Assembly (NCBI RefSeq): GCF_036507355.1
Contig: NZ_AP027877.1
Length of the DNA: 64,000 nucleotides
Strand: one strand, 5' to 3'
Origin: Escherichia coli
GTDB lineage: Bacteria; Pseudomonadota; Gammaproteobacteria; Enterobacterales; Enterobacteriaceae
The position numbers and the translations under genes were made by a program. Below are positions 14,711 through 35,503 of this stretch, one piece after another. Under the pieces are notes generated by a model. The model saw nothing but the letters and a program-made list of their open reading frames with translations. It ran no database searches and was not told the DNA's origin. Numbering within the stretch: the stretch's first letter is position 1; each line of letters opens with the position of its first letter.

Positions 14711-14786
14711 TGGCTCCTCTGACTGGACTCGAACCAGTGACATACGGATTAACAGTCCGCCGTTCTACCGACTGAACTACAGAGGA
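14711..14786 (-). tRNA. asnV: tRNA-Asn (GUU)
   Basis: 76-nt exact tRNA-Asn sequence (reverse complement), ends in CCA. Confidence 0.97.
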
Positions 14787-17113: not shown

Positions 17114-17135
17114 AAATCTGGCTCCTCTGACTGGA
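17114..17135. repeat. attL of asnU island: 22-nt direct repeat containing the tRNA-Asn 3' end
   Basis: aaatctggctcctctgactgga identical to 25212..25233; the tRNA body does not continue here. Confidence 0.8.
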
Positions 17136-17793: not shown

Positions 17794-18826
17794 TTGAGAA
17801 ATATAAAAATGACTCTATTAGAAAAATTGTTATCAAAAGGATACTTTCCTAAAGAAGCTCTCCCTCCTTTCTCTACGGAAAAATATGCACGCGCAATTGT
17901 GAATGGATACGATAATCTTCCCCAATTATTTAGAACCGGAAAATTCATAAGTAAGTGCGCTATTCATAATATTTCCAGAAAAGGTACATTACGGAGAAAA
18001 CTTGGAATACCTAATCCCATCAACTTCTTTAGATTAAGTGAGGCAATAACTGAAAATTGGTACGATATATATGAATGCGCAAGTGAATCAACAATATCGT
18101 TGACAACTCCAGACCCTGCCAGCAATGGCGGAAGAGCATTCAACCCAAAGCATTCATTAAATGAGCTTCCAGATATTCATGCAAAACTTAGAAGTAAACA
18201 TAAATATATACTTAAAACCGATATAAGCAGATTTTACCACTCAATATACACTCATAGTATTGCATGGACTTACCATACAAAAGATATTTCAAAAAGAAAC
18301 AGAAGCAATAGTTTATTTGGCAATGTATTAGACAAGCATTCGCAAGATTCGCAAGATGGACAAACAATAGGGCTCCCCATTGGTCCAGATACATCACTTA
18401 TCATAGCAGAGTCTCTGTTATCAAATATTGATCTTAAGCTTAGCGAAAAAGGCATTAGCAATGGCTTACGTTATATAGATGATTATTTCCTAGGGTTCAA
18501 TACAATTGGGGAAGCAGAATCTGCATTAACAATAATGCAGGAACTGTTAAACGAATATGAGTTAGCATTGAACCCCTTGAAAACAGAAATCATACAATTA
18601 CCAATTGAATTCGAGCCATTAGCAATTTCAGAACTAAGGGCATTTTCATTTAGAGATACAGCTGGCGGTCAGAAATCAGATTTAATGCATTATTTCAACA
18701 TAGCTTTCAAGGCAGCAAAAGATTTACCAACGGAACCAATATTAAAATATGCAGTATCAAGGACATTTGAAGTAAATGTTACTGCTGAAAACTATCCTGT
18801 TTTTGAAAATTTTATATTACAATGTG
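17794..18826 (+). pseudogene. Reverse transcriptase (stand-alone UG/DRT-like), 5' portion, interrupted by IS1
   Basis: RT motifs in order: RKLGIPNP (fingers), KTDISRFYHSI (motif A), GLPIGPDTSLIIAE (B'), LRYIDDYFLG (C, YxDD); TTG at 17794 or ATG at 17809; ORF runs into IS1. Confidence 0.8.
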
Positions 18827-18881
18827 GGTGATGCTGCCAACTTACTGATTTAGTGTATGATGGTGTTTTTGAGGTGCTCCA

Positions 18882-19157
18882 GTGGCTTCTGTTTCTATCA
18901 GCTGTCCCTCCTGTTCAGCTACTGACGGGGTGGTGCGTAACGGCAAAAGCACCGCCGGACATCAGCGCTATCTCTGCTCTCACTGTCGTAAAACATGGCA
19001 ACTGCAGTTCACTTACACCGCTTCTCAACCCGGTACGCACCAGAAAATCATTGATATGGCCATGAATGGCGTTGGATGCCGGGCAACAGCCCGCATTATG
19101 GGCGTTGGCCTCAACACGATTTTACGTCACTTAAAAAACTCAGGCCGCAGTCGGTAA
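18882..19157 (+). CDS. insA: IS1 protein InsA
   Basis: 91-aa ORF inside IS1. Confidence 0.95.
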
Positions 19158-19579
19158 CCTCGCGCATACAGCCGGGCAGTGACGTCATCGTCTGCGCGGA
19201 AATGGACGAACAGTGGGGCTATGTCGGGGCTAAATCGCGCCAGCGCTGGCTGTTTTACGCGTATGACAGGCTCCGGAAGACGGTTGTTGCGCACGTATTC
19301 GGTGAACGCACGATGGCGACGCTGGGGCGTCTTATGAGCCTGCTGTCACCCTTTGACGTGGTGATATGGATGACGGATGGCTGGCCGCTGTATGAATCCC
19401 GCCTGAAGGGAAAGCTGCACGTAATCAGCAAGCGATATACGCAGCGAATTGAGCGGCATAACCTGAATCTGAGGCAGCACCTGGCACGGCTGGGACGGAA
19501 GTCGCTGTCGTTCTCAAAATCGGTGGAGCTGCATGACAAAGTCATCGGGCATTATCTGAACATAAAACACTATCAATAA
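19076..19579 (+). CDS. insB: IS1 transposase InsB reading frame (made as InsAB' by frameshift)
   Basis: 167-aa ORF overlapping insA in the -1 frame. Confidence 0.9.
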
Positions 19580-19603
19580 GTTGGAGTCATTACCTACAAT
19601 GTG

Positions 19604-19881
19604 TTACAGCTGACAGTAGCACATTAAAATACACCGTCAATCAGCTTATAAAATACAAAAGAATAGGTTATGTTCAGAACGTTGAGAACATTTCGCATAT
19701 TTTGAGACAATTAGCAATAACTGAAAGCTCACTTGGCCATGGACACGAAGTTGCTTATTGCCTATGGCTTTATTTGATACTACGCATCCCCATACCAGAA
19801 GTCGTCGTTAAAAATGTGGTACCAATGAGAGATCCATTTGTTGCAATTTTGTTATGCGATTGCAGGCAAAAAACCTCATGA
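19604..19881 (+). pseudogene. Reverse transcriptase, 3' portion (C-terminal 92 codons)
   Basis: Reading frame of 17794..18826 resumes after IS1 minus one TSD copy and stays open to TGA at 19879..19881 (translated by hand). Confidence 0.7.
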
Positions 19882-20171
19882 CTTTTATACCTGATTTCTC
19901 AATTTATGAGCAAATGATGGTGATGGAAGAGCTATCGGGCGATATGTAGATTTTTGTCTATGAGATGCTTGCAAAAGGATGGTTTCAACCATTATCAAAC
20001 CAAAATCCAATTAGTCAAAATGAGTGTTATAGGTTCCTATTGAATTCAGGTGTTTTTTTCTATAATGAACATCTCTCATTAACTATTATGGCTGAAAGTC
20101 CAATTGATACAGATGGCTCGGCAGAGGGATTCAGTGGTTGAAATTAAAAATTATCTGTAAATAACTAACCC

Positions 20172-20201: not shown

Positions 20202-20449
20202 TTGTGTTTCGATATACATATATGGGCTTTGGTGAATAAATCAGATTTGGGATAAACATCCCTGGAGACAGTTGCAGCTGTCAGGTAATACGCACGCTTT
20301 TTGCTCAGAACCCCATCAATGCGCCGCCAGCACTTTTGCAGCCAGCCCAGTCGGGTTACGCCGTCTGGACTCCCAACTTTTGATGATATCGACGCTGGTT
20401 CCTTAGGGTTATTGCGTAACGATTTATTCTGCGCCAGTCATGAAAGCCG

Positions 20450-21409
20450 TTATTCCTTCTTCCATTCGTGCGCGTAAACCTGCTTCACCCAGCGACCGCG
20501 CCCGTCGCCATGCCCCAGGTCCATCGCCACCATTGCCAGCGCCTCTTTTTCGCTGAATCCCTGCGCCAGATACCGGCGAATATCGTCCTGCGCCAGATAC
20601 CGGCGAATATCGTCCTGCGCCCAGGCGTAACGCAGCGAATGTGGGGAGTATTTGCCCGTCAGCCCCATACGCAAAGTCTGGTTGCGCCAGTATTTCATTG
20701 CCTGTTTAAGGCTTGCCGCATCAATCAGCCTGCCGTTGCGCAGTCCTGCCACCACAATGGCATTATCGAGCGCCCGTTTAACTGCGCCAGCATTCTGAAT
20801 AAGGGTATCGCGGGGCCGCCCGCCTTTGGTGCCAAACACGATGGTTAGCCGGGTGGCTCCACGTTCAAGCGACTGCCGCCACGTCAGCAATGAACGTGAA
20901 CAGCGTACCGCCTCCTGTGAACGTAACCCCATCAGCCGCGCCAGCTCCAGCGCTGCCGCCAGTCCTGCGTCTTTCAGCCGGGCAGTCTCTGCCATCTGTT
21001 GATAATATTCCGGCGTGATGGCTTTCCGTGTACCATTGCGGGATACGCCAGCCAGCCCCAGCGATTTATTCGATATCCGCTCACTCTGCGCCAGTTTTTC
21101 GCGCCCGGCCTGCGTCAGTATTTTACGGATAGCCGCCGTTTCGTTATGCAGCGTCTGTTTCTGAATACCCTGCGCCAGTCGCATCTGAATATACGCCTCA
21201 ATATGCTTCGCCTTTAAATGATGGACATAGCGTATCTGAACGTTCAGTTCCGTCAGTCGTTCGCAGAACCGTTCTGCCATGGCGATACGGTCATGGACAG
21301 TCTTGTGCGCCCCGCCAGCCTGCCGCGCCAGGTTTTTCATCTCTCTTTCCAGCATACCCATTTTGCTTTTCCTCTTATCTCGCTCCTGATTTTCACAAAA
21401 CCACAACAC
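20450..21409 (-). CDS. Tyrosine recombinase-like protein (second recombinase of the island)
   Basis: 319 aa; box II-like HSLRYAWA and downstream LGHGDGRGRWVKQVYAH with candidate catalytic Tyr; contains in-frame 9-aa tandem duplication. Confidence 0.65.
   Translation of the reverse strand: MLWFCENQERDKRKSKMGMLEREMKNLARQAGGAHKTVHDRIAMAERFCERLTELNVQIRYVHHLKAKHIEAYIQMRLAQGIQKQTLHNETAAIRKILTQAGREKLAQSERISNKSLGLAGVSRNGTRKAITPEYYQQMAETARLKDAGLAAALELARLMGLRSQEAVRCSRSLLTWRQSLERGATRLTIVFGTKGGRPRDTLIQNAGAVKRALDNAIVVAGLRNGRLIDAASLKQAMKYWRNQTLRMGLTGKYSPHSLRYAWAQDDIRRYLAQDDIRRYLAQGFSEKEALAMVAMDLGHGDGRGRWVKQVYAHEWKKE
20565..20618. repeat. Perfect 27-bp tandem duplication inside the recombinase gene
   Basis: gccagataccggcgaatatcgtcctgc repeated twice, giving DDIRRYLAQ-DDIRRYLAQ. 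Confidence 0.9.
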
Positions 21410-22253
21410 ACAACGGATACAGCTTTCCCCGGCGCATAGGCCGATAGCCCCTGATTTTTGTCGGGGCTGCGAGCAGTACCTGAGCGCCGGGGCGACGGCT
21501 GTTGAGGTTTTGCGGGGTATCGGTTGTGCTCTCAGAGCAGCCGCCAGCGTGAGCTGGTCATCCCCCGGACCGTCCTGGTGGTCCCCCTCCGGTACTGGCT
21601 CATGTTCTCCTTTGGTGAATGAATGGTTGAAATAAATGCTGAAAAGCGACGTCAGAAGCTCGCCTGTGGCTGGAACAGTTGATATGACTGGTGCAGATGA
21701 AAATTTCTGCGGGCGTCAGTCTCTCACTCTGCGTGAGCGACTGACGCCCTGGTCTGGCGCAGGCGCTGAAAATTACACTCTGGTGCAGGATGGCGGCCAC
21801 GCGGCAGCAAATGCCTTCGGCAAATGCAGGCCGCAGCCCGTCATGTAAAGGGCGCTGGTAATCAGCAGGGTATAAGTGGGCCGGAGAAATTCCGGCAAAG
21901 AGAAACCGTGCAGCCGGTGAAGGCTGTTGCCGTTAAGCGATGACGATGAAGCCGTCCAGTGTATGTACTCTTAGCCTCAAACGCTTTCGCGTTCCGGTAT
22001 TGCGGAGGTCGTACCGGTAGCAGGGGGCTGGTCGTCCTGATAAATCAGGGGCTTCTTGCAGACCATGAAGCCAAAGGGGCTGTCAACCGACAGCTTATTG
22101 CAGGAGAGAGATTACACCGTAATTTCTGGCGCAGAAAGGGGAAACTCATTTTTCTGGAAATTGAGTTTCCCCCTGAATTTATGGAAAGTTTGTGAATGGA
22201 ACACTGCCGCGCTTCGCTTGTCGTCTCCCGGTGTGCGATTTGCTGTATCAGGA

Positions 22254-22502
22254 TCATCGCTTTCGCATGAACCTTTCCAGGCGATTACCTTTGCCGTCGA
22301 AGTATCTGGAAGGCCAGATGATCTCTGGAGCTATCTCCAGCGCATCTGCAATAAGTTTTTCTCCGCGCGGCCACGGGCGGGAAAGTGCATTTGCCAGTGT
22401 GGAAGAACTCAACCCTGCTTTACGCGATACCTCAGCCAGTGAGGTCCCTTTCTTTCTTAATCCGGCAATGATATCTGCCGGATGCCAGTCATCTTTATTC
22501 AT
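22254..22502 (-). CDS. Ner-like DNA-binding protein (Nlp/SfsB family)
   Basis: 82 aa; WHPADIIAGLRKKGTSLA...GLSSSTLANALSRPWP closely resembles Nlp/Ner. Confidence 0.8.
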   Translation of the reverse strand: MNKDDWHPADIIAGLRKKGTSLAEVSRKAGLSSSTLANALSRPWPRGEKLIADALEIAPEIIWPSRYFDGKGNRLERFMRKR

Positions 22503-22614
22503 TGTTTTCCCCTGTTTCCAAATCTGGTTTTTCTGACTTTAGGAACTCTAAAGGCAATGAATCTTAAGGAATGCTAAAGATGGTGTCAATGTAACTATTA
22601 ACCAAACAGGTTAT

Positions 22615-22914
22615 ATGATCCCTGAACGACTCAAGGCAGCGAGGTTGCGGGCTAATCTCACCCAGGAACAACTGGGCGTTCGTGCAGGCATCGCCGAAGA
22701 TACGGCCTGCTCCCGGCTTTCTCAGTACGAAAGTGGAACACACAAGCCCACATTCAAAATGGTTTGTGCCTTTGCTCGTGTTTTGCATGTTCCTGAATGT
22801 TACTTCTATGCACAGGAAGACACTTTCGCCGAAGCGATTTTAAGGCTGTATGACGGTGAAACTGTGCAGTGGAATATAAAAACAGAGATCGTTCATCATA
22901 CTGAACGGGTATAA
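22615..22914 (+). CDS. XRE-family HTH regulator (copy 1)
   Basis: 99 aa; HTH LTQEQLGVRAGI; paralogue of 23014..23283. Confidence 0.7.
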   Translation: MIPERLKAARLRANLTQEQLGVRAGIAEDTACSRLSQYESGTHKPTFKMVCAFARVLHVPECYFYAQEDTFAEAILRLYDGETVQWNIKTEIVHHTERV

Positions 22915-23013
22915 ACCTCTTGCCTCATCCATCCTCTTTATGAACTCTAAAGAAAAATGCTCTTGAGGAATGCTAAAGATTACCGTCATAAATTCAAACT
23001 GATGGTAATTTCA

Positions 23014-23283
23014 ATGATCCCCAAACGCTTAAAAGAAGCCAGATTGCGGGCTAAACTCACTCAGGAAAAATTGGGGGTACTGGCGGGTATTGAAGAAGCC
23101 ACGGCTTATTCGCGTCTGTCACATTACGAGAGTGGTACGCATAAACCAACTTTTGATCTCGTTTGTGAGTTTGCCCGAGTACTCAATGTACCAGAATGCT
23201 ATTTCTATACGGTGGATGATGATTTCGCGCAGGCGGTGTTGGATCTTCATGCCAGGTGGACAAAGAGAACTACGGAAAGATAG
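23014..23283 (+). CDS. XRE-family HTH regulator (copy 2)
   Basis: 89 aa from MIPKRLKEARL; about 70 percent identical to copy 1; similar upstream sequence. Confidence 0.7.
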   Translation: MIPKRLKEARLRAKLTQEKLGVLAGIEEATAYSRLSHYESGTHKPTFDLVCEFARVLNVPECYFYTVDDDFAQAVLDLHARWTKRTTER

Positions 23284-23299
23284 ATCGCAGAAAATAAAA

Positions 23300-23400
23300 A
23301 ACCCCGCTGGTGAGGCAGGGTTCTTTATTTTTCGTTCTCAGACTGCTTATAGCGACCTGAGCAACGTTGCGCGACAATACAATCCTAGCAGAATAAGTTT
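23300..23400 (-). ncRNA. Candidate antisense sRNA antitoxin (Orz-like) with 20-nt match to toxin 5' UTR
   Basis: gacaatacaatcctagcaga (23373..23392) repeats 19/20 at 23545..23564 in the toxin leader; stem-loop with flanking T-run near 23290..23330 could terminate a minus-strand transcript. Confidence 0.3.
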
Positions 23401-23788: not shown

Positions 23789-25066
23789 TTACGACGCCTG
23801 TTTCAGGCGGCGGGCATACTGGTAAGCTGAAACATACCCGTCACTGTTTGCATCAAGATAATCTGACCACCATTGCATCATCTCGATCCGCTCTTCCAGA
23901 TATTCAGCCTTGTGAATATACGCAGCGCGGACGCTGTTTCTTTCCTGGTGACTCATTTGTTTTTCAATCGCTTCTTTGCTCCACAGCCCCGATTCACTCA
24001 ACGCACTACATGCCATCGCCCGGAAGCCATGCCCGCAGACGTCTTTTTTGGTGTCATAGCCCATCACCCGCAGCGCTTTATTCACGGTGTTGTCGCTCAT
24101 GCACTTATCCTGGTCGTACTCGCCGGGAAAGATAAAGGCCAGATGACCGGAGAGGGCTTCGATCTGTTTCAGGATCGCAATTGCCTGATCCGACAGCGGC
24201 ACGATATGTTGAATTTTCATTTTCGACCCCCGGTAAGAGAAGCGCACATTTTCGATCTGCTCGCGTTCTTCCGCGATCACCCACAGCTTTTGCTGCCAGT
24301 CGATTTCACTCCAGCGAGCAAAGCGTAGCTCGCTGGAGCGCACAAAAAATATCAGTGACAACTTAAGGGCGTATTTCGTCAGCAGCCTGCCGCAGTAGTT
24401 ATCCGTACGGGTTAAAAGCTCTGGCAGCCTGTCCAGCGACAGGGCCGGGTAATGATTAGTCTCTGGCGCAGCAAATTCACCATCCAGATACAGCGCGGGG
24501 TTCGCTTTGAGCAACTGCTTTTTCATCGCGTAGTGCATGATGTCGGTGACATAGTTTTTCAGCCGGGCGGTGATCTCCAGAAAGCCTTTGCTCTCCACCT
24601 TACGCAGCGTGACCAGCAAATCCTCTGTTTCGATCTCCCCGATAAGGCGATCCCCGATATCCGGGAAAACATACATTTCCAGTCTGCGCATAACCGTTTT
24701 CGCGTAATGTTCAGACCAGCGTTTATGCTCGCCATGCCAGTTAGTGGCGACCTGGCTGAACGTCTGTCCGTTTTTCTTCTTCTGTTTCTCCGTCTGCTTC
24801 ACCGCAGCAGGATCGACGCCTGCATGAATGTTATTGCGTGCCGCTTCCCGTAAACGGCGAGCCTGCAACAGCGAGATCCCCGGGTAGGGGCCAAAGGCCA
24901 GCTTTTTCTCTTTCCCGTCGATACGGTACTTCATGTACCAGAGTTTTGAGCCATTAGGTTTGATCAACAGGTACAGTCCGGAACTGTCTGTCATTTTGAA
25001 AGGTTTGTCGGAGGGTTTGATCTTGCGAATCGTGGTATCTGTTAATGCCATAGCGGGGGGCTCCAT
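23789..25066 (-). CDS. P4-type tyrosine integrase
   Basis: 425 aa (or start at MALTDTTIRK, 25051); arm-binding N-terminus and C-terminal catalytic domain (HGFRAMA); adjacent to tRNA-Asn. Confidence 0.9.
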   Translation of the reverse strand: MEPPAMALTDTTIRKIKPSDKPFKMTDSSGLYLLIKPNGSKLWYMKYRIDGKEKKLAFGPYPGISLLQARRLREAARNNIHAGVDPAAVKQTEKQKKKNGQTFSQVATNWHGEHKRWSEHYAKTVMRRLEMYVFPDIGDRLIGEIETEDLLVTLRKVESKGFLEITARLKNYVTDIMHYAMKKQLLKANPALYLDGEFAAPETNHYPALSLDRLPELLTRTDNYCGRLLTKYALKLSLIFFVRSSELRFARWSEIDWQQKLWVIAEEREQIENVRFSYRGSKMKIQHIVPLSDQAIAILKQIEALSGHLAFIFPGEYDQDKCMSDNTVNKALRVMGYDTKKDVCGHGFRAMACSALSESGLWSKEAIEKQMSHQERNSVRAAYIHKAEYLEERIEMMQWWSDYLDANSDGYVSAYQYARRLKQAS

Positions 25067-25211: not shown

Positions 25212-25233
25212 AAATCTGGCTCCTCTGACTGGA
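25212..25233. repeat. attR of asnU island (overlaps 3' end of intact tRNA-Asn)
   Basis: 22-nt perfect match to 17114..17135. Confidence 0.8.
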
Positions 25234-25292
25234 CTCGAACCAGTGACATACGGATTAACAGTCCGCCGTTCTACCGACTGAACTACAGAGGA
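25217..25292 (-). tRNA. asnU: tRNA-Asn (GUU)
   Basis: 76-nt exact tRNA-Asn sequence; position between cbl and yeeO. Confidence 0.97.
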
Positions 25293-27040: not shown

Positions 27041-27116
27041 TCCTCTGTAGTTCAGTCGGTAGAACGGCGGACTGTTAATCCGTATGTCACTGGTTCGAGT
27101 CCAGTCAGAGGAGCCA
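27041..27116 (+). tRNA. asnW: tRNA-Asn (GUU)
   Basis: 76-nt exact tRNA-Asn sequence, plus strand. Confidence 0.97.
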
Positions 27117-35427: not shown

Positions 35428-35503
35428 TGGCTCCTCTGACTGGACTCGAACCAGTGACATACGGATTAACAGTCCGCCGTTCTACCGACTGAACTACAGA
35501 GGA
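35428..35503 (-). tRNA. asnT: tRNA-Asn (GUU)
   Basis: 76-nt exact tRNA-Asn sequence. Confidence 0.97.

Follow-up and report, generated by a model that had tools for sequence, protein, structure and literature searches.

A minus-strand gene at positions 20450-21361 of the Escherichia coli DNA analysed here (a 64,000-nt stretch of contig NZ_AP027877.1, hereafter the window) carries a perfect in-frame 27-bp tandem repeat inside the catalytic domain of a 303-aa protein with a tyrosine-recombinase fold. The repeat is polymorphic among otherwise identical proteins. The catalytic residues are conserved in the family of the protein, which is homologous to the atypical relaxase MpsA of SGI1 (Salmonella genomic island 1), and the gene is preceded by a long conserved leader that contains the structured RNA EFASI and a GC-rich hairpin. 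With moderate confidence, we read the gene as encoding an MpsA-like putative relaxase of a small mobilisable island, in which the 27-bp in-frame repeat is unstable. In the literature that we searched, the link between EFASI and an MpsA-like gene and the polymorphism of the repeat both appear to be undescribed; EFASI is named there in two papers only, and in neither is it connected with such a gene.

The gene and its polymorphic 27-bp repeat

An earlier note on this DNA had described a minus-strand open reading frame (ORF) of 319 codons (20450-21409), which in a mechanical ORF list opens with GTG at 21409. The minus-strand gene stands, but its start has been corrected: all orthologues, and the RefSeq coding sequence (CDS) of E. 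coli G4/9 (WP_021570843.1, in a 100%-identical locus), begin with MGMLEREM, which corresponds to ATG 21361, and the 16-codon GTG extension is probably not translated. By its domain content the minus-strand frame is a real gene, because its 303-aa product matches the Pfam families PF12835 ('Integrase_1', E 5.6e-58) and PF12834 ('Phage_int_SAM_2', E 4.7e-34), both above the gathering score (195.5 bits with a cut-off of 23, and 117.2 bits with a cut-off of 22). Of 136 relatives, 136 matched one of the two models and 134 the other, and the family, of modest size, comprises 815 representatives at the 50% identity level (E<=1e-3). In other collections, the protein had no match to PF00589 above the gathering score (8 of 136 family members match at E<=1e-3), nothing among PDB sequences even at E<=10 (phmmer), only a sub-threshold XerC match in NCBIfam and only a weak match to a generic integrase family in PHROGs; PADLOC gave no match.

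For P0001, the closest relative with a single copy (95% identical), an AlphaFold2 (AF2) model (predicted local distance difference test score (pLDDT) 95.8) showed the two-domain architecture of the tyrosine recombinases, with a helical core-binding domain and a catalytic domain. Over both domains, Foldseek matched this model best to lambda Int, XerA, XerH and Cre, with a probability of 1.00 and a template modelling (TM) score of ~0.5-0.6. Sequence identity to solved tyrosine-recombinase structures was 10-21%.

The tyrosine-recombinase catalytic set is complete and in order (R147, K179, H241, R244, H284, Y296). Its minus-strand codons are those of Arg-I R147 (20921-20923, motif GLRSQE), the catalytic Lys K179 (20825-20827, GTKGGRPR), the box II residues H241-S-L-R244 (20630-20641, four residues before the repeat), His-III H284 (20510-20512, LGHGDGRGR) and the nucleophile Y296 (20474-20476, QVYAH). 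In an alignment of 137 family members of 30-95% identity, R108, G145, R244 and Y296 were invariant, and R147, K179, H241 and H284 were at least 90% conserved. The box II motif HSLRYAWA and the C-terminal VYAH, which had been picked out in the earlier note, align with such family-wide invariant or near-invariant columns (H241, R244 and Y296). Because the catalytic set is conserved across the 137 members, the alignment indicates that the full set is under selection in the PF12835 family.

The earlier note had placed a perfect in-frame 27-bp duplication between box II and the tyrosine, and both the duplication and its position were borne out. Tandem Repeats Finder reported a single array, at 20560-20621 (period 27, 2.3 copies, 100% matches, 0 indels), and a repeat search of the window found two perfect 27-bp copies at 20560-20586 and 20587-20613; in full, the minus-strand array is made up of two perfect copies and the 8-nt microhomology GGCGCAGG. 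In codons, copy 1 corresponds to A248-L256 (20594-20620) and copy 2 to A257-L265 (20567-20593). The minus-strand translation reads HSLRYAW-AQDDIRRYL-AQDDIRRYL-AQGF, where AQDDIRRYL represents the 9 residues added by the repeat (in a different register, DDIRRYLAQ twice). By our own arithmetic, a perfect 27-mer tandem repeat would arise by chance in 64 kb with p ~1e-11.

Short perfect tandem repeats can be mis-assembled, and a 126-codon plus-strand ORF (20468-20848), raised in the earlier note as the possible real gene, overlaps the array region. We nevertheless regard a sequencing or assembly artefact, or a plus-strand gene, as effectively refuted. A 2-copy 303-aa protein identical to that of the window is found on 158 contigs, including the complete genome of E. 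coli G4/9, and the duplication is therefore not an assembly artefact of the window. Furthermore, a polished long-read assembly has the 1-copy form, and the 54-bp array is shorter than a typical read. The minus-strand product, with Pfam matches down to E 5.6e-58, also has hundreds of homologues, which argues against the plus-strand frame.

The duplication is not universal. When one copy of the repeat is removed, the window protein becomes identical to the database protein P0125, which is on 29 contigs. Among otherwise identical proteins, one copy was therefore found on 29 contigs, two copies on 158 and three copies on 1, and there were no 4- or 5-copy versions on record. The 1-, 2- and 3-copy alleles are all in the same island at the same site, and the single-copy alleles contain the 8-nt sequence GGCGCAGG twice, 27 nt apart, a classic arrangement for slippage to act on.

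Copy number was compared with single nucleotide polymorphisms (SNPs) in a 21-kb alignment of 16 loci, which fall into two chromosomal backgrounds. The flanks of the two backgrounds differ by ~1-1.4%, whilst the island shows 4 fixed SNPs in 7.3 kb, a disparity that points to a recent horizontal spread, either of the island itself or of a segment slightly larger than it. Background B has one copy, and the reverse transcriptase (RT) gene of the island is intact (518 aa) in L017 and L018 of this background. In background A, the RT gene is split by a 1-bp deletion and one, two or three copies occur. Within background A, the 2-copy window has four derived SNPs in common with the 1-copy loci L014 and L019, and the 2-copy locus L009 differs from the 1-copy locus L021 by 0 SNPs. 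Our parsimony count requires at least 5 copy-number changes among the 16 loci under either ancestral state. Copy number cuts across the SNP tree, which means that the repeat both gains and loses copies.

In a search with synthetic queries, 2-copy versions of two abundant sister alleles (on 814 and 50 contigs) were not on record. This makes recurrent, independent duplications from one to two copies less likely, and suggests that the first duplication probably happened only once, as a rare event, and that the perfect repeat has frequently contracted and expanded since then. We propose that the duplication formed by replication slippage or misalignment between the two 8-nt GGCGCAGG repeats 27 nt apart, and that the perfect tandem repeat would then vary by slipped-strand mispairing to give the 1-, 2- and 3-copy alleles. 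The recent slipped-strand event that had been suggested from the window is supported by the microhomology in the single-copy alleles and by the otherwise identical 1-copy allele, but not as a single fixed event, given the three copy-number states and their conflict with the SNPs.

Kinship with MpsA and the conserved upstream leader

PF12835 serves as the relaxase-like signature for MpsA (PMC10484663), and mpsA is essential for the transfer of SGI1 (PMC6414798). The SGI1 mobilisation region was taken from the PLSDB record OX345320.1, where it was located with primer sequences from the supplements of PMC6414798; a primer-derived 52-mer had no match in complete E. coli genomes. The MpsA protein of this record is 321 aa long, carries the published landmarks R162, H247, R250, H251 and Y319, and matches PF12835 above the gathering score (E 4e-11). 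When compared with the profile of the PF12835 family (hhalign), MpsA gave a probability of 99.1% (E 4.8e-19) over 241 columns covering both domains, whereas the P4-type integrase of the island itself gave a probability of 1%. The kinship of the family with MpsA is real but distant, and the gene, as an MpsA relative, is probably not a second integrase. In the earlier note the gene was a second tyrosine recombinase, with a role as excision helper or invertase among those considered. The fold and the catalytic set agree with that description, but the profile comparison does not favour an integrase, an excision helper or an invertase.

Upstream of the gene lies a conserved leader (21362-22200, minus strand). 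Its ~830 bp are near-invariant in 7 E. coli loci in which the CDS differ by 7-12%; compared with Klebsiella, the leader is 69% identical and the CDS 70%. The leader is conserved at least as well as the CDS, and its substitutions relative to Klebsiella show no third-position excess, in contrast to the 139-149 third-position differences in the CDS against ~60 at other positions. Because its substitutions lack the codon periodicity of the CDS, the pattern marks the leader as conserved non-coding sequence. For the same reason we rejected a protein-coding leader, for which a 60-aa ORF annotated by the Prokaryotic Genome Annotation Pipeline (PGAP) and ORFs of 89-158 aa in other genera had been candidates.

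The leader contains a full-length EFASI RNA (Rfam RF02957) at 21470-21603 on the minus strand, 109-242 nt upstream of the start codon, with a score of 112.4 bits against a gathering score of 51.2. EFASI was present ~100-240 nt upstream of every PF12835 gene that we examined, in E. coli (L002 7037-7170, L004 7036-7169, L006 7044-7177), Klebsiella (L023 5778-5908), Serratia (L025 5765-5895) and a 50%-identical member (L027 491-640). The first bases of EFASI form a Shine-Dalgarno sequence and ATG, followed by a 21-codon ORF. The name stands for 'Enterobacteriaceae, Frequently Around STAXI and Integrases', and the Rfam text quoted in PMC12370729 places the motif upstream of integrase genes and downstream of STAXI, with its function unknown. 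The EFASI of the window agrees with the description given there in preceding an 'integrase', which we read here as MpsA-like. No STAXI match in the window reached the Rfam threshold. In Serratia, EFASI has a STAXI match below threshold on its upstream side (L025 5295-5421; 34.1 bits, gathering score 40.5, E 5.5e-4), consistent with the Rfam description.

Further upstream, 350-388 nt from the ATG, is a conserved GC-rich hairpin with 17-bp arms (21711-21749), a candidate origin of transfer (oriT) or processing element. Its predicted free energy as DNA is -21.8 kcal/mol (z -6.9), and it is invariant in the 7 E. coli loci, with 5 compensatory pairs in Klebsiella and Serratia. In SGI1, a 125-bp oriT lies 304-428 nt upstream of mpsA (PMC6414798), and the core of the essential sgm-sRNA is located between oriT and mpsA (PMC9299015). 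The order of hairpin, EFASI and gene in the window mirrors the order of oriT, sgm-sRNA and mpsA. We consider this parallel with the mobilisation module of SGI1 suggestive, not proof, and by analogy it suggests that EFASI may have a role like that of the sgm-sRNA.

It is unlikely, in our judgement, that the protein is instead a true site-specific recombinase of the island, that is, a resolvase, a partner of the P4-type integrase in excision or integration, or an invertase, with the repeat as a length polymorphism. Such an enzyme would fit the complete catalytic set, the two-domain fold that matches lambda Int, Cre and Xer, the weak PHROG integrase and XerC matches, and the integrase label used in both RefSeq and Rfam (the latter in PMC12370729). 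However, the profile similarity is specific to MpsA and nil for the integrase of the island, which already has that intact integrase and perfect attachment (att) sites, and some loci have the gene beside a tRNA without a second integrase. The long conserved leader with its structured RNA and hairpin, as in the SGI1 mobilisation module, also speaks against a recombinase of this kind. An invertase acting on a switch, as had been suggested, finds no convincing inverted repeats around a segment: between 17000 and 25400 of the window, the best pair had 22-nt arms with 77% complementarity.

Our preferred reading of the gene as an MpsA-like putative relaxase allows a wider proposal, to which we give little credence at present. 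The HTH_35 gene upstream, the hairpin, EFASI and the PF12835 gene would together constitute the self-contained mobilisation module (oriT, a required sRNA and a recombinase-type relaxase) of a widespread family of small tRNA-integrated defence islands of the Enterobacterales. In the E. coli lineage of the window, the 27-bp repeat would act as a reversible length switch that tunes or disables mobilisation. If this proposal were true, the orphan EFASI motif would gain a function analogous to that of the SGI1 sgm-sRNA.

The island, its borders and its cargo

The gene is located in an island bordered by 22-bp perfect direct att repeats, a distal copy at 17114-17135 and a copy at 25212-25233 that overlaps the tRNA-Asn gene used as integration site (25217-25292, minus strand) at its 3' end. 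The repeats enclose ~8.1 kb, or ~7.3 kb without an IS1 insertion. Next to the tRNA gene is the 420-aa P4-type tyrosine integrase of the island (23789-25051, minus strand). An imperfect third copy of the att repeat (77%), which may be a chance occurrence or the relic of an older junction, lies at 22520-22541 between the HTH_35 gene and the first of two XRE-type helix-turn-helix genes. The window contains four tRNA-Asn genes in total (14711-14786, 25217-25292, 27041-27116 and 35428-35503), of which the one at 25217 was considered as an integration site.

The upstream neighbour of the MpsA-like gene, also found in Klebsiella and Serratia, encodes a Ner-like HTH_35 regulator (22254-22502, minus strand). 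It is preceded by a promoter-like site (22589-22561), and with the exception of this site the promoter and terminator scans gave results at or below chance. The two XRE-type genes are tandem paralogues (22615-22914 and 23014-23283), and each is preceded by a 45-nt repeat (22537-22581 and 22936-22980, 82% identical) that probably represents a duplicated promoter or operator region. Near these genes, an OrzO-P/ohsC-like RNA was detected below threshold (23296-23371, minus strand; 47.8 bits, gathering score 60). Upstream of the HTH_35 gene, the islands of Klebsiella and Serratia have isrK and C4 antisense RNA matches above threshold (L023 4245-4437; L025 4204-4406), which suggests that the backbone of the island includes a region for immunity or regulation of the phage type.

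Directly downstream of the MpsA-like gene is a NadS-family pseudogene remnant (20316-20402, minus strand; RefSeq annotation transferred by coordinates), followed by the cargo, a DRT4/DRT6-like defence RT pseudogene on the plus strand (17809-20141). In one chromosomal background a 1-bp deletion near 19874 splits this gene into ORFs of 431 and 87 aa, and in the other background the gene is intact (518 aa, for example L017 11193-12749). It is further interrupted in the window by an IS1 insertion of 777 bp including the target duplication (18827-19603, plus strand), which none of the 15 related loci in the comparison has, not even the G4/9 locus, otherwise identical to the window. Independent further frameshifts of the RT gene were observed in L013, L015 and L016, and the defence cargo is decaying repeatedly.

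A role of the gene as part of the RT system, another of the possibilities first considered, is not supported. In other E. coli, homologues with 88-93% DNA identity adjoin Tmn, HEPN/PDC-S58, Lamassu, Dnd and type VI secretion system (T6SS) genes, at tRNA-Asn, tRNA-Thr, tRNA-Asp and other sites, and homologues of the PF12835 gene were found in 171 of 5426 complete E. coli genomes, and the RT in 1 of the 5426. The gene therefore belongs to the backbone of the island and is not a component of the RT system. The order of HTH_35 gene, ~860-bp gap and gene is kept in Klebsiella and Serratia, where the protein is 70% identical, and a P4-type integrase adjoins in Serratia.

Several E. coli loci show variants of this organization. 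The order is tRNA-Thr, gene and dndBCDE in L004 and L007, and tRNA-Asp, disrupted integrase, gene and T6SS in L006. Some loci have the MpsA-like gene and its leader beside a tRNA with no intact integrase, and the gene itself is frameshifted in Ecol_316. These loci look like fixed remnants of the same backbone beside large cargo.

Proposed mobilisation, decay and comparison with known systems

In our view, the protein most likely serves a small integrative and mobilisable island as its own atypical relaxase, of the MOB_M type. The ~7.3-kb island is integrated at tRNA-Asn by a separate P4-type integrase and carries defence cargo, here a decayed DRT4-like RT. By analogy with SGI1, Y296 would nick an origin of transfer in the upstream leader, for which the hairpin at 21711-21749 is the candidate, and EFASI, between hairpin and gene, has the position of the sgm-sRNA. 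Export of the excised island would then fall to a conjugative element in the same cell, and the 2-copy allele would persist because the gene escapes selection between transfer events.

A number of observations weigh against this scheme. The pairwise similarity of MpsA and P0001 is weak (BLASTP 25% identity, E 0.003). Neither EFASI nor any other shared RNA was found in the SGI1 leader with Rfam, there is no detectable similarity between the two leaders, and no nic site could be assigned in the leader of the window. MpsA depends on a separate small protein, MpsB, whereas no MpsB-like accessory gene is encoded near the window gene, which is followed downstream by the NadS remnant and then by cargo. 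The window protein also has a full N-terminal core-binding-like domain (PF12834), unlike MpsA as described in PMC8152469, and in these two respects it looks more like a complete recombinase. In addition, the 16 loci on which the homoplasy of copy number rests are a small sample, mostly of short-read assemblies, and the rest of the island is decaying in the lineage of the window (RT frameshift, IS1, NadS remnant).

The position of the insertion counts on the same side and favours a loss of function. Profile searches and structural modelling, the approach suggested in the earlier note, placed the 9 added residues after W247, four residues after Arg-II R244, and before H284 and Y296. The distance from Arg-II to His-III is increased to 40 residues in the 2-copy allele, compared with 31 in the single-copy protein. 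Among 243 relatives, the spacing between the box II His and His-III is 34 residues in 229 and lies within 33-36 in 240; a spacing of 43 occurs only in the 2-copy allele. Close orthologues show little or no variation at the duplicated residues. Residues 241-257 form one helix in the single-copy model, whilst the AF2 model of the 2-copy allele has a broken box II helix and a loop at residues 245-255 with pLDDT <50; the global fold is retained (pLDDT 91.3, predicted TM score 0.82).

These findings raise the possibility that the duplicated allele is a dead gene, in which the 9-residue insertion beside box II inactivates the enzyme, and that the island is a decaying, immobile remnant. The strict spacing, the invariance of the duplicated residues, the collapse of AF2 confidence across 241-260 with a broken helix, unlike in the single-copy model, and the frameshifted RT of the same lineage with IS1 in the RT of the window all fit such an outcome, which we rate as a serious though less than even prospect. 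On the other side, the change is in-frame and leaves an intact ORF on at least 158 contigs, the island has an intact integrase and intact att sites, and AlphaFold does not reliably predict mutational effects. At the very junction where the repeat sits, MpsA, a functional relative, is longer by 29 residues (60 residues from Arg-II to His-III, against 31). Because the insert is a tandem copy, there is a register that keeps the native box II helix, with the 9 additional residues in the connector. Even an inactivation would be reversible, since contraction to one copy restores the ancestral protein exactly. Our best guess is that the 2-copy insertion lowers but does not abolish activity of the putative relaxase.

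The duplication itself is a modest result, but the natural 1-, 2- and 3-copy alleles are usable for structure-function work, and they illustrate that a 'perfect duplication' can be a polymorphic state, not a single event. The routine annotation of PF12835-family genes is 'integrase domain-containing protein'. The same 90%-identity protein cluster includes alleles recorded on 814 and on at least 1000 contigs, and Salmonella, Klebsiella and other Enterobacterales have homologues. If these proteins are MpsA-type relaxases, many small anti-phage islands (DRT, Lamassu, Tmn, Dnd, HEPN) would be mobilisable with their own oriT, and their spread would thereby be explained. A concrete and testable hypothesis for EFASI, an Rfam motif of no known function, also comes from the link to MpsA. 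If it is true, the requirement for a self-encoded sRNA, so far confined to SGI1, would extend to a second family.

As a tandem repeat, the array resembles bacterial in-frame variable-number tandem repeats in its perfect head-to-tail units, the microhomology at its origin, the presence of variants in near-identical strains and a copy number that is incongruent with SNPs. It differs from the usual examples in having 1-3 copies only and in lying inside the catalytic domain of a DNA-processing enzyme, not in a surface protein or promoter. As a protein, the product shares its fold, domain order and R-K-H-R-H-Y set with lambda Int, Cre, XerC/D/H and XerA. The distance from Arg-II to His/Trp-III is 22-23 residues in Int, Cre and XerD, compared with 31 from Arg-II to His-III in the single-copy protein.

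Among relaxases, the MOB_M proteins MobK (pIGRK) and TcpM (pCW3) likewise have recombinase-type catalytic residues with a nucleophilic tyrosine, and MobK, TcpM and MpsA show no significant mutual similarity (PMC8152469). MobK and TcpM are plasmid-borne, unlike the window gene; in a tblastn search of the family against 72,556 plasmids, 51 plasmids were matched, and pIGRK was not among them. According to a preprint (10.64898/2026.01.13.699239), MOB_M genes are mostly chromosomal, their products are the commonest relaxases of enterobacterial chromosomes, 96% of them have an integrase nearby, and annotations often call them integrases. The window gene fits this description.

The closest parallel is SGI1. 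Both proteins belong to the PF12835 catalytic family and have the motifs GLRxxE, GTKGGRxR, HxxR and LGHG in common, although the interval from Arg-II to His-III, 31 residues in the single-copy protein, is 60 in MpsA. Both genes are carried by an integrative island with a separate integrase, and both are preceded by a leader, long and conserved, in which a GC-rich hairpin lies 300-430 nt upstream and an RNA element is placed between hairpin and gene. By this analogy, the gene is best read as belonging to a known, only recently recognised kind, the MpsA-like putative relaxases.

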